A stretch of 64,000 bases of DNA, taken from positions 36,828,001-36,892,000 of the forward strand of contig OX597837.1 of assembly GCA_951406725.2 (NCBI GenBank). Direction: 5' to 3'. This document shows, piece after piece, positions 24,701-30,700 of the stretch. A model generated the notes under the pieces. The model did not search any database and was not told the DNA's origin. It worked only from the letters and a program-made list of their open reading frames with translations. The translations under genes were made by a program, and so were the position numbers. The stretch is from Octopus vulgaris. Its lineage: Eukaryota. The stretch's first letter is position 1. Each line of letters begins with the position of its first letter.

Positions 24701-27700
24701 GGTGTGTTTACGTCCCCGTCACTTAACGGTTCAGCAAAAAGAGACCGATAGAATAAGTACTGGGCTTACAAAAGAATAAGTCCCGGGGTTCATTTGCTCG
24801 ACTAAAGGCGGTGCTCCAGCATGGCCACAGTCAAATGACCGAAACAAGTAAAAGACTAAAAGAGTATATGCTTGTTTCCAAGGCTGTGTAGGTCCTACTC
24901 TCAGAACTAGTGACTGATCCGGTTTGTGCTCAACCCAGAGAGAGGGAGAGAGAGAGAGGAGAGAGAGAGAGAGAGAGAGAGAGAGAGAGAGAGGGGGAGA
25001 GAGAGAGAGAGAGAGAGAGAGAGAGAGAGAGAGAGAGAGAAAGGACCAGATAATAGTGTTAAACTGGACAATGTGTTAGGCCAACTCAATAATGACCAGG
25101 TGGTTTTAAACTGTACTTGTACTTGTGACGGCGTTTACCCAGGGCGGGTTGAGCCGGCTTCTTCTCTCATAGAAGTTTCATGGGAATATTGAATTCACAA
25201 GCGGTCCCTGACATCCCGCATGCATATCTCGAGTGACGGGACGCCCTGTTTGCCGCGGAGTCTCCACAGATGCAGGGACAGAACGACCTCGAAGCCGCCG
25301 GTTGCCGATCAGACGCCTCTTGGAATTTTCACCAGTTGGCCAGGCTGCGACCCTAATACCACTTGGTGCCAGACCATCCGCTTTGGGTGGCCCTACCAGG
25401 AACCGAAGTTCCCGACAGCATAGCTCTGACACTGCGTGTTTACACCACACTACCGCTTTGAGGAGGAGTTGGACTTTAGGTTTTAAACTGGACAGTGTAT
25501 GAGGTCTATCAGCCAAGGACCAGATGATGGTGTTGAACTGGACGTTGTATTAGGACTATTGTCCAAGGACCAGGTGGTGGTATTAAACTGGACAGTGTTG
25601 TTAGGCTAACCACCCAAATGAAGGGCAGACCAGATGCTTGTGCTAAATAAGGTGATGTGTTAGGTCTACCACTCATGTTTGGCCAGCTTAACCCTTTCAA
25701 TACCAACCTGGCCAAAACCACCTCTGGCTCTGTAGTACAAATGTCTTGTTTTCATAAGTTTTGTATCAAAATCTTCCACCAAACCTTAGTTGCAATTAAT
25801 GCTCCTAACACTAGCTGAATGATAAAGTTATTTTACTAAATTCTTTGTTATATTTTAAATTAATTGAAAGAGACCCAGAGCATCTCAACAGAAATATGGT
25901 AACGAAAGGGTTAATCTTTTTCACTCTGTGGAATTTCTACAGGTTCCATTAGTATTGATGTTGAAGATATGAAAAGTAAAGATGACCTCAACAGCAATAA
26001 AATCATTCTTCCTTTCTTAAATAGCTTCTCTTAACCCTTTCATTACCAACCTGGCTGAAACCACCTCTGGCTCTGTTGTACAAATGTCTTGTTTTCATAA
26101 GTTCTGAATTAAAATCTTCCACCAAACCTTAGTCACAATTTATGGTCCTAACACTAGCTGAATGATAACTAAGTTATTTGACTAAATTCTTTGTTATATT
26201 TAAAGTAATTGAAAGAAACACAGAGCATCTCGAAATAAATACAGTAATGAAAGGGTTTTAAGGTAATGAATTCCACTCACACCTGGTACCTGGTTATTTC
26301 AGTTGAGAAAATTGAATCATGGGAAAAACACAACTTTATCTAAAACATAACAAGGTGTGTGTGTGTGTGTGTGTAACAGTATACAAACTGTTGATACTTA
26401 AACACAGGACTGGAACAATGTTGGAGAGGAGAAAAGGAAAAAAAACATATGCAAGAAAGAGAAGAATAAAGGTAAAAAAAAATGAATGGATTAAAAAAAG
26501 ACAAATATAAATTTTAAAAAAAAGAAATGGTAGAAAAAAAGCAAAAAAAAAAGAGCAAAGAGTCAAATGGAAATTGTGAAGGATTTGTTAATTTGAAAAA
26601 TTCCTTTGCTTACCAATAGTTCCAGTAAGAATTCTGATGGCATGTCTGTCTCTTCGGTTTGAGGAAATGGCAATAAATTGAGATGGGCACAGATCTTGTG
26701 TAAAGACAATTTACAGCTGAAGAACAGAAAGAGAGAAAAGTGTGTATGAAATATAACCATTCCTTGAAAACCAAAATTAGATTTTAGCAAAAAGAAGGAA
26801 AGAGAGAGAGAGAGAGAGAGAAGGAGGGAAATAAAACAAGTATTTTCAAGTATTACAACAGACTTTTAATAGAATCTTAATCCTCAGTATTTTGTCTCCT
26901 TTCCCTGAAATTTGGCATTGCTACTTATAAATAAAAGCCATTGTAAAACACCCTGGGGATATGGCGTAGTGGTTAAGAGCATGGGCTACTAACCCCAAGA
27001 TTCCGAGTTCAATTCCAGGCAATGACCTGGACAACGATGACGGCGGTGGCGACGACGACGAAAAATACCTTAACCCTTTCGTTACCAATATCTTGTTTTC
27101 AAAAGTTCTGAATTAAAATCTTCCACCAAACCTTAGCCACAATTTATGTTCCTAACACCAGCTTAATGATGACTAAGTTATTTTATTAAATTCTTTGTTA
27201 TATTTAAAATAATTGAAAGAAACACAGAGCATCTCAAAATAAATACTGTAATGAAAGGGTTAAGAATGAGAACCCAGGATCGAAATTTCCCCAAGACACC
27301 TGATGAAGGCTGGAGGGTATACCAGCCGAAATGTTGTGTTAACAACAAACAAGATGAGGACAAATATCTGTCAAATGTAAATAATGTACAGAATTCTTCA
27401 TCTCTTAAATATAGAACTGTATTATCTAATGGGTACGCAGCTGACATTAGACTTCAATGGAGACATATAGACAAACTCCACCAAAAACTAGCTCGTCTTT
27501 CAAACCATCTAACTTTTCTGTGTAGATGTAGAGACTCAGTAGTTAAGAGCGTGAGCTACTAACCCCAAAATTCCGAGTTTGATTCCAGGCAGTGACCTTA
27601 GTAATAATAATAACAACAACTACATCGAAAAATACCTTAGGAATGAGAACCCAGATTCAAAATTTCCCCAAGACACCTGATGAAGGCTGGAGGGTATATC

Positions 27701-30700
27701 AGCCGAAATGTTGTGTTAACAACAAACAAGATGAGAACAAATATCCGTAAAATGTAAATAATGTACAGAATTCCTCATCTCTTAAATGTAGAACTGTATT
27801 ATAAATGCAAGACCTGAAATTTGGTGAGAAGGGGTTAGTTGATTACATTGACCCCAGTGGTCAATTGATATTTATTTTATCACCCCCAAAAGGATGAAAA
27901 AGATAGTTGAGCTCAGTGGAATTATAAAAAGAATTAATGATGATGATGATGATGATAAACATGAAACGTTTCTTACTCTATTGCAGAGAAATGCTTCATC
28001 AGAGCTTGTCGGGTGTCGATGCTGGCCACGTTTGCAATGGCAAAATCTTGTAAATCCTCAAACTGATGGAAAAGAACTTTCTAGAAAAAAAGAAAAAAAG
28101 AAAAAGAAATGAGAGACAAAAAGTAAGAGAAGAATTATAAATCATACCATTAATTAATTACGGAGATGTACTCGCATAGCATTAATTAATTAGAAACAAA
28201 GAACAACAAATATCTAAAGAAATCAGAGTTGAAAGGAAGAAAAAAAATAGAAAAGGAAAAAAATGAAACCAGCAGCATTTTTAGGGTACGAGACATTTTG
28301 GTATTGCTTGTTTGGCATCAAGGGTCTGATGCTGACTTAAATGACATCAGACGTTTTAATGTTTCAGTAAAAAGCTTGCAAGGTTTAGGGTTCAGTCCCA
28401 CTGCATGGCACCTTGGGCAAGTGTCTTCTACTACTCTGCCCAGTTACTGAAATCACGATCTGGCGAACGTGAATGCAAAGACCTAACCAAGTAGGCCGCT
28501 ACTCACCTTGACTAAACTATCGTTTATACACATTAAACGTCTGTACCACTGCAGTTGTCTCCCCTGCACATTACACCTCCTTCTTATACTTTGTGCCTCG
28601 TTACCTAGCGGTTCAGCAAAAGAGACCGATAGAATAAGTACTAGGCTTACAAAAGAATAAGTCCCGGGGTCGAGTTGCTCGATTTAAGGCAGTGCTCCAG
28701 CATGGCCGCAGTCAAATGACTGAAACAAGTAAAAGAGTAAAAGAGTGAAAACTGTTACCTGAAGGGCTGTGATCTTGTTGTAGTGAATGTCAATCCGATC
28801 ATGGATTGTTAAGGCTTCTCCATTCTGGTCATTGATTTCAAACTCTACGTACATTTCCAGCATGTCCAGCAACTGTAAGAATAAGAAAGAAGAGTATCTG
28901 AAGAACCTGTTGCCAGTGAGAGCAGAGAAGCATCGTGGTCAGAGTGAGTCAAGATAGAAGGATTGTAGGGCCTGTGGCTAACGGGAGCTGAGAATTGGGG
29001 TAAGATGGAATAAAAAAAATAGAAAATAAGTAGGACCTTTTGCTAGAGGGAGTCAGGGATAGAAGTTTTGTAAAACTTGAGACCAAAGTTTAATGACTGA
29101 AATTAGTAAAAGAATAAAAGGTACACTTTTGTTCGATGCACCAGTTTGTTGGTTTTCATCAGGAAAAACAGAAAATAAAAGTATGATGGATGAATTCCTT
29201 GAAAACAATAGCCGAGAGGCAATATGCCTTCCATTTGAAACAGGTGCATGACGATTTGTTGGAATCAGGGCTCACTCAATATTCAGGAGTCTTGGACTAG
29301 CTGGGAAGGAGAGATGTTACCAGAAAATTAACAGAAGCTACTGAGAAAGCAAGCCATTACATCTGGCTCAAGCGAGAAGGCAAGTGGTGCAACAAGAATG
29401 AGTATTAAGGATGGTAGAAACATCTGGCCCAGAGTCACCAAATTTGATTTCAAAAAAAGCTTGTGCTATTCTGCACAAGTTTTGTTACCCACATCAGTGG
29501 GTAACCATGGGACAACACTGGTATTGCACACAGACGAAGGGGCTGAAACACCTACAGAGCTGCTTCACCACCTGATGAGACAGCAACTACTGTATTTGGA
29601 GGCAGGGTGCATCCCCACCATCAGTGCACAAGGGTTTGCCCCTGATTTTAGGTAGACCCTATGAGGGGTAGGAGGAGCTATTTAGTTCTGATATTAGCAG
29701 TTGGTGATGATTGAGATAGATGGGGGTCAGATAAATCTGAGAGAGAGTCACATAGATCTAGTACCAAATTTTCTTTTTTTTTTTGTTTCAGCCACTGGAT
29801 CACGGCCATGTTGGGGCATTGTACCCTGAAAGGCATAGTTGATCATATTGTCTGTCCCCACCCCAACAACCTATTTTAAGTCTGGTACTCAGCAATCTCT
29901 ACTTGTTACCCTGTTAAGTTAGGGGGACATAAACACAGACAAGGTTTGAAAAAAAGGGTTTGACATAAACACACGCACACACACACATCTCCATCCACCA
30001 ATTTTACTTACTAGCCACTGGTCAACCAAAGAAAGGAAAATTAATTTACCTGTCCAAAGAGCTTTCCTTCTGGCTTCTTGATCAGGTTGGACAGCTTACT
30101 GACCACCAGGAAGTGAGTGTTATCAATGAGGGCATTAAAGAAACGTCGGGTTGGAAGCTGGGCCTCCAGGTCAATCATTAGTTCCAGGAAGCGTTCACAG
30201 TAGTGAATGGAATCTCGAGACACTGCACCTGAAGGAGATTAAGGGTGGAATGAACGGAGGTGGAGAAAGGGGTAGATGAGACTGGACAAAAGGGTAGATT
30301 GATCTGGACAAAAGGAGTAGGCTGGACTGAAGGAAGGGATAGATTGAACTGGACAAAGGGTCTAGATTGGACTACAGAAATGGGTAGATTGATCTGGACA
30401 AAGGGGTAGACTGGACTGGACAAAGGGATAGATTGAACTGGACAAAGGGTCTAGATTGAACTACAGAAAGGGGTAGATTGATCTGGACAAAGGGGTAGAC
30501 TGGACTGGACAAAGGAGTAGATTGGAGTGGACAAAGGGGTAGATTGGACTGGACAAAAGGGTAGATTGATCTGGACAAAGGGGTAGGTTTGACTGGATAA
30601 AGGGGGTAGACTAGACTGAAGGAAGGGATTGATTGAACTGGATAAAGAGTCTAGATTGGACTACAGAAAGGGGTAGATTGATCTGGACAAAGGGGTAGAG

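Follow-up and report, generated by a model that had tools for sequence, protein, structure and literature searches.

A Penelope-like retrotransposon of Octopus vulgaris with a tRNA-like head in its terminal repeat, a probable internal Pol III promoter

Among described systems, the one closest to the element reported here is the Penelope-like element (PLE) Poseidon of Anolis, PAc. It has just one open reading frame (ORF) for a reverse transcriptase (RT) with a C-terminal endonuclease (EN), and a pseudo-long terminal repeat (pLTR) with a minimal hammerhead ribozyme (HHR). Its start codon lies upstream of the HHR cut, its copies end at two internal 3' sites about 31 nt apart (the interval is called the tail), and inverted 5' copies occur (Craig et al., PMC11167929). 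There, reverse transcription begins at these two positions and mostly copies RNA that has not been cut (PMC11167929). The features of structure and of copy ends recur in a repeat family of Octopus vulgaris, in which internal starts on uncut RNA are presumed likewise, that was analysed from a stretch of 64,000 nt (contig OX597837.1, positions 36,828,001 to 36,892,000, forward strand), hereafter the window. Unlike PAc, the octopus element has a tRNA-Arg-like head with A and B boxes in its 3' untranslated region (UTR), short copies that start at this head, and no shared TTTT; the term "tRNA" does not occur in PMC11167929 (term count 0). The distance from ATG to cut is 70 nt in the octopus element and 26 nt in PAc. 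An HHR inside the reading frame was dropped as a novelty, having already been described for PAc (PMC11167929).

In the literature examined, a promoter has been mapped in only one PLE, Penelope of Drosophila (PMC2377424). In D. virilis it was proposed to lie in the upstream pLTR, within the portion that is 3' UTR, and to drive the downstream copy, as considered here. However, it is TATA-less and resembles that of long interspersed elements (LINEs), and Penelope has a 75-nt intron (PMC2377424), whereas the octopus element has A and B boxes and a continuous frame that requires no intron. Sm-alpha and Sj-alpha of Schistosoma likewise have a promoter for RNA polymerase III (Pol III) related to tRNA, followed by an HHR, and form tandem repeats (PMC6765202, PMC2770079). 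They are described as stand-alone repeats akin to short interspersed elements (SINEs), whereas the octopus cassette is the pLTR of a coding PLE, has the minimal PLE-type HHR and is rarely in tandem; it resembles Sm-alpha in layout only, and membership is not claimed. In metazoan non-LTR retrozymes, units that measure 170-400 nt and carry a type I HHR stand in tandem; they have been tied to PLE pLTRs (PMC7229834, PMC7761336, bioRxiv 10.64898/2026.07.22.740005). In Helenus and Cassandra, too, the terminal repeat contains a sequence that resembles a tRNA or 5S RNA; these are non-autonomous LTR elements (PMC10886601), unlike the autonomous PLE described here.

The terminal repeat and its parent element

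In loci retrieved with an endonuclease DNA query, the head lay 29 nt past the stop of the RT/GIY-YIG ORF in 26 out of 29 cases. A query with a distant protein gave 128 matches, and in 28 of the 30 loci drawn from these the UTR and head came after the ORF; the same order was found in six of seven near-full copies. Along the element the order is ORF stop, 29 nt, head, (AAT)n linker, ATG, HHR, tail and ORF; two loci (L315 and L324) had the arrangement pLTR-ORF-pLTR. Because the head follows the ORF stop so regularly, the head, linker, HHR and ORF start are taken together as the pLTR of an autonomous element. We consider it very probable that the repeat is such a pLTR with a tRNA-like head, and that its dimeric form is a rare deletion. 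The original prediction had seen a separate, non-autonomous chimera of SINE and pLTR, a view that the place of the head in the autonomous element's own 3' UTR does not sustain. It had rightly recognised a PLE ORF start between the paired HHR motifs (ATG 30 nt before the HHR), which continues in other loci, and the PLE that it invoked as mobilising enzyme does exist at full length.

Near-full elements are about 2.3 kb long and mutually 86-90% alike. One open frame, 569 codons long, shows motifs of an RT and, towards its C terminus, of an endonuclease; the latter we take to be GIY-YIG, judging by its motifs and position. PF00078 and PF26215 are present in homologues at 60-73%. The element is of the Penelope/Poseidon type by four tested features, namely its frame, partial tandems with inversions, the minimal HHR and bimodal ends; its placement in the clade is provisional, and by eye no Cys-rich linker was seen between RT and EN. 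All 30 loci of the protein query belonged to the family with the headed pLTR, so that no second PLE family was found among them. Two related loci were found in metagenome contigs and none in viral contigs, and a PDB sequence search gave no match.

The frame opened by the ATG runs through the ribozyme, and this is conserved in the peptides of relatives. Six proteins from other genomes (P0020, P0044, P0055, P0058, P0069 and P0102) encode the same ribozyme in frame; several of these relatives have tandem repeats with a short unit, about 40 codons long. In P0020 and P0102 the same four residues stand at the beginning, upstream of the ribozyme. The relatives' peptides also hint at DNA that may resemble A and B boxes.

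The HHR was recognised by its core letters and stems, in comparison with the published minimal motif, which has an additional base between positions 9 and 10.1, a G10.1-C11.1 pair and a palindrome at 15.2-16.2 (PMC4209133). As predicted, the majority letters of 208 copies are those of a minimal type I, PLE-type HHR: CUGAUGA, one extra base, G10.1-C11.1, a stem II of 5 bp, the ACGU palindrome and a stem I of 4-5 bp. The sole frequent non-CpG variant of the core was at the free position 7 (37/208). Non-CpG departures from the majority amounted to 5.6-7.0% in core, stems and loop versus 4.6% in the flanks, as expected for decay after insertion, and no covariation was found within these 208 copies. 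Over stem II, two codons read mostly R..R in the relatives' peptides and W..Q in the octopus family, which would mean C-G versus U-A. This is a lead only: mixed stem II pairs were equally common, and CpG decay would yield the same swap.

In 100 fixed-step samples of 10 kb (1 Mb of a 2.8-Gb genome) 11 loci were found, from which about 31,000 loci are estimated (95% range 15,000-55,000). In a search with head and body, the usual short copy was a monomer of about 270-300 nt, often with an inverted partner, and both orientations were present in 31 of 53 short-copy loci. Two loci, L176 and L205, belong to an older subfamily whose body has diverged; the head is retained in L205.

That short copies outnumber long ones, with 7 of 45 running into the ORF, could mean that they are an ordinary self-propagating tRNA-SINE, one of which was later captured by the long element. 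With tRNA-SINEs they share a 5' head that derives from a tRNA and has both boxes. A 1994 octopus study is said, by its title, to concern three tRNA-derived retroposons. This explanation is improbable. The body that follows the linker encodes the element's own ORF start in frame, conserved in relatives, and therefore derives from a PLE; the ends and inversions are also of PLE type. Moreover, solo copies reach no further than ORF nt 123-154, and Anolis Poseidon needed 172 nt (PMC11167929), a figure that may not transfer to the octopus. A separate tRNA-SINE that borrowed only a LINE 3' tail was not found: the whole short copy is colinear with the pLTR of the autonomous PLE and has PLE-type ends.

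Copy ends and the tRNA-like head

The 3' ends of 128 copies fell into two groups, 59 of them 45-65 nt and 56 of them 79-86 nt past the HHR cut, corresponding to ORF nt ~123 and ~154, whereas only two lay within 5 nt of the cut; stated more narrowly, the two groups lie 52-64 and 80-86 nt beyond it. Among 44 inverted pairs, 34 had one long and one short 3' end. Because the ends and the inverted pairs match Anolis Poseidon and not the cut site, the ribozyme does not define the unit. It is inherited from the parent element and was likely dispensable for the making of the window copies.

At the other side, 5' ends were placed for 66 loci from the head and body search: 37 at UTR nt 22-33, one at nt 12, seven at least 71 nt into the ORF, eight inside the head, and 13 in copies without a head. 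Thus, 37 of the 45 copies that reach the A box begin within a 12-nt stretch at the 5' end of the head. The A box starts at nt 37 of the UTR, and the equivalent of tRNA position +1 is nt 30. On genes with A and B boxes, Pol III starts where these short-copy 5' ends fall. The pile-up was also present in copies without inverted partner (8 of 13, at nt 25-33).

The run TTTT was scarce along the element. Over about 2.6 kb of sense strand (ORF, UTR, head and body), no TTTT site was common to more than two of 33 long copies. The coding alignment (7 copies, 13.9 kb) held five, versus 22.9 expected from synonymous-codon draws, and four LINE families of the same genome had 1.7-5.3 per kb. Together, the 5' pile-up and the absence of shared TTTT fit Pol III transcription from the element's own A and B boxes.

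The head itself was closest to tRNA-Arg, with 50 identical positions, when 27 distinct tRNAs of the same genome were compared. The majority letters of both boxes fit the consensus at tRNA spacing, which bears out the tRNA-like A/B head of the original prediction, while the cloverleaf stems have decayed; in the head at window position 26955 the boxes are 45 nt apart, as in tRNA genes. In all, the repeat is probably the pLTR of an autonomous Penelope/Poseidon-type PLE whose tRNA-Arg-like head in the 3' UTR acted as an internal Pol III promoter. That the head was used as a Pol III promoter at all may be called fairly probable. A further step, that the whole coding element of about 2.6 kb was transcribed by Pol III from a captured tRNA promoter, with terminators purged from the ORF and tens of thousands of SINE-like 5' copies as the outcome, is conceivable and rather doubtful.

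In a partial tandem, the upstream pLTR would provide the Pol III start, immediately ahead of its A box, and transcription could extend through the ORF. On the uncut transcript the element's protein would then begin reverse transcription, at ORF nt ~123 or ~154, in the way shown for Anolis Poseidon. If it began at the upstream pLTR, no more than the initial ~270-300 nt of the RNA would be copied, which would account for the abundant SINE-like copies; if it began at the downstream pLTR, long copies would result. The short copies would then map the start site, because reverse transcription from the upstream pLTR-ORF junction runs back to the first base of the RNA.

Several observations weigh against this explanation. 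As all copies descend from one ancestor, the TTTT deficit counts as a single observation (about 0 versus 3 expected, P roughly 0.01-0.26 per copy), and of two related PLE contigs from other organisms, L328 has no TTTT over 915 nt and L327 has seven. The loci used for 5' ends were chosen for holding most of the head, and both boxes were retained in only 31 of 113 heads under a loose pattern. An uncapped Pol III RNA would, in addition, have to be translated. For the encoded protein, the RVT_1 match (E 2.7e-6, 27.7 bits) is below the cut-off of 29.6, and Pfam GIY-YIG models gave no match. Finally, the 5' boundary overlaps a short palindrome, whose hairpin reached -13.4, -9.6 and -4.4 kcal/mol in three copies and was among the strongest 40-nt folds in two of them. 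An RT stall or a snap-back at this palindrome could therefore make the same pile-up, and snap-back lengthens the apparent 5' ends to nt 23-25.

Some of these points lend themselves to another explanation of the same element. The tRNA-like piece would then be a passenger, left by a tRNA pseudogene or an old SINE that inserted into the 3' UTR; the element would be transcribed by Pol II, as Drosophila Penelope is, and the 5' boundary would arise from RT stalling or fold-back. Many inverted pairs are indeed joined at the palindrome ahead of the head, with the strong hairpin at UTR nt 15-45; but most copies pass hairpins of similar strength in the head and the HHR, and 8 of the 13 copies without inversion begin at nt 25-33 too. 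The cloverleaf is too degenerate for ARAGORN or the Rfam tRNA models, which left the head unmatched in scans of the window and of short stretches; yet both boxes fit the consensus at tRNA spacing though the stems decayed. The scarcity of TTTT extends to L328, but not to the LINE controls. D. virilis Penelope, for its part, has a LINE-like TATA-less promoter in its pLTR (PMC2377424). Overall, the passenger explanation seems unlikely, and the use of the head as a Pol III promoter is preferred.

The window copies and their 378-nt dimers

Six HHR motifs lie in the window, at 27296, 27673, 38025-38068 (minus strand), 38270, 38650 and 48373, distributed over three loci and 90-94% identical over 130-170 nt, in line with the original prediction. 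That prediction had also given GAAAC-GUU-GUGU as occurring six times, and in this it went too far: only the motif at 38650 has it intact. Both motifs of the first locus (27296 and 27673) read GAAAU, those at 38025 and 48373 read GAAAC-AUU, and the one at 38270 has extra changes in stems I and II. The strict pattern CTGATGA..GAAAC had five matches against a chance expectation of 0.42, three of the five being family copies. Rfam scans of the window and of two short stretches returned no hammerhead match. The window copies are about 5-7% decayed and probably dead.

Of the six heads announced, five were found. Complete ones lie at 26955, 48197 and 38133-38220 (minus strand), and in those inside the tandem units (27538 and 38512) the A box is missing its first half. 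No head in the same orientation accompanies the 38270 motif. A typical solo copy (48147-48499, plus strand) consists of a short inverted piece (48147-48190), a complete head from 48197, (AAT)n, the HHR at 48373 and a long 3' end. An inverted short copy (37974-38220, minus strand) has a complete head, linker, an HHR with G16.2 changed to A, and the short 3' end. In the family pLTR body a second stretch resembling a B box lies directly ahead of the HHR (window 38630-38643).

The first dimer begins with a complete head (26955-27029, plus; A box 26962-26972, B box 27007-27016), followed by a decayed trinucleotide linker and the first bases of the pLTR body (27030-27073, plus). Here the stretch 26951-27800 is not two clean units, as had been proposed, because an unrelated 186-nt repeat (27074-27259) parts the head from its HHR. 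This repeat is foreign to the element, is flanked by TTAA on both sides and has CCCTTT...AAAGGG ends; it is presumably a piggyBac-like miniature inverted-repeat transposable element (MITE), judging by its hallmarks. Further copies of this AT-rich repeat lie at 25736-25914, 26079-26257 and 37450-37968. The PLE ORF start follows (27266-27562, plus), its ATG 30 nt ahead of the HHR and 98 codons open through the ribozyme; its PLE-derived part reaches about 27537, the point at which, through the deletion, ORF nt ~270 abuts the second, truncated head (27538-27598, plus). The first HHR (27296-27339, plus) is a minimal type I motif with C15.2 changed to U, one inserted base in loop II and a predicted cut after 27335; the second (27673-27716, plus) also has C15.2 changed to U, with a predicted cut after 27712. 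The copy ends with the PLE tail of about 31 nt between the two 3' end sites (27765-27800, plus; the assignment rests in part on PMC11167929). The second dimer (38228-38775, plus) consists of the damaged HHR at 38270, the ORF start, the half head at 38512, the intact HHR at 38650 and a long 3' end. The predicted dimer spacings were recovered, with 377 nt (27336-27712) and 380 nt (38310-38689) from cut to cut.

The 378-nt unit is the product of an internal deletion, through which the ORF start came to adjoin the downstream pLTR in mid-A box. The joint was present in 3 of 30 ORF-start loci. A search across it brought up 754 candidates, and the 40 of them that were scored included the same three as full matches, all on the contig of the window. 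It is thus not the family unit, as had been supposed, the usual copy being the 270-300-nt monomer. The three loci have unrelated flanks and are 88-93% identical; as three independent insertions with different flanks share the joint, the derivative was retrotransposed at least a few times. Never were more than two units in a row.

A working definition of retrozymes asks for two consecutive complete HHR motifs (bioRxiv 10.64898/2026.07.22.740005). The ancestor of the dimers might have had them. In the window dimers, in contrast to non-LTR retrozymes, neither two consecutive complete HHRs nor a highly self-paired monomer was found. The derivative as a whole amounts to three copies of two units, with decayed motifs, an ORF start within the unit and no excess of folding. 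The HHRs are CpG-decayed, the ACGU palindrome is lost in three of four motifs, and the third dimer has its first HHR partly deleted. Against 60 shuffles each, the circular minimum free energy of the monomers had z values of -0.66 and -0.61, i.e. they are not unusually folded.

The original prediction had read the family as a Pol III retrozyme in its own right: transcripts of the 378-nt tandem would cleave themselves as dimers, and the PLE would copy the monomer or circle so formed. The shared joint, the complete first head at 26955 and the proposal that non-LTR retrozymes are derivatives of PLE pLTRs (bioRxiv 10.64898/2026.07.22.740005) speak for it, and copies longer than the unit exist for a head-less 276-nt variant. 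On the other side stand three copies against an estimated 31,000 loci, an inner head without half of its A box, a TTTT gained inside the unit in two of the three dimers, and insertion ends that do not mark the cut, besides the lost palindromes and ordinary folding. This explanation is very improbable, and a 378-nt circle could at best have come from the dimers' ancestor.

The head-less 276-nt tandem results from another type of deletion, in which the ORF start is joined to the pLTR body, with up to about 2.5 units. It was found at L034, L037, L038 and L041-L044 (five distinct loci on contig C29, one on C3), and copies exceeding one unit are L034, L035 and L042. By copy count it is a better retrozyme candidate than the 378-nt unit.

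One raw, unstranded RNA run (organism C, run X24), of which about 6% was read, held 8,182 family reads, with a depth of about 4,100-4,750 over the HHR; over that part of the ORF start which precedes the joint it was 8-22. Read ends did not pile up in this run, in which short unstranded reads cannot separate a circle from a tandem. Loose read ends of organism C had the same order from UTR to head. In the RT region X24 has 330 reads, and organisms B, D and E carry the RT part. At window 38698-38727, 59 reads of X24 and X6 join opposite strands, and one loose end holds another CUGAUGA motif; they probably stem from one rearranged, expressed copy in organism C.

Other repeats were noted in the window. 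Long near-perfect hairpins at 16016-16142 and 14486-14682 had weak microRNA-model scores and are probably MITEs. One abundant SINE-like family occurs at 896-1077, 8201-8689, 13195-13385, 34133-34427, 36924-37210, 53374-53564 and elsewhere, and another at 22194-22359, 36451-36838 and 47008-47795; one of the two forms head-to-tail arrays of 160 and 184 nt (47032-47618, 97% alike).

Meaning for the family

Full-text literature searches turned up no description of a tRNA-headed pLTR; in Repbase, Dfam or SINEBase, in published libraries of repeats or in the octopus paper of 1994 the short copy may already bear a name. Relative to the literature compared, short copies that start at the 5' end of the head and the lack of shared TTTT were not found in print. 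For annotation, the high-copy "SINE" seen here is the end of a Penelope element. If the head is a passenger, this is an ordinary decayed Penelope family. If it is a promoter, the thousands of short copies are a fossil map of its start site, a coding retrotransposon has switched polymerase, and a link arises between three kinds of sequence that have been treated separately, namely PLE pLTRs, tRNA-SINEs and repeats such as Sm-alpha in which a hammerhead goes with a Pol III promoter. Should the whole element have been made by Pol III, a SINE would here have originated within the autonomous element that is its partner, and this might serve as a model for the origin of elements of the Sm-alpha type.

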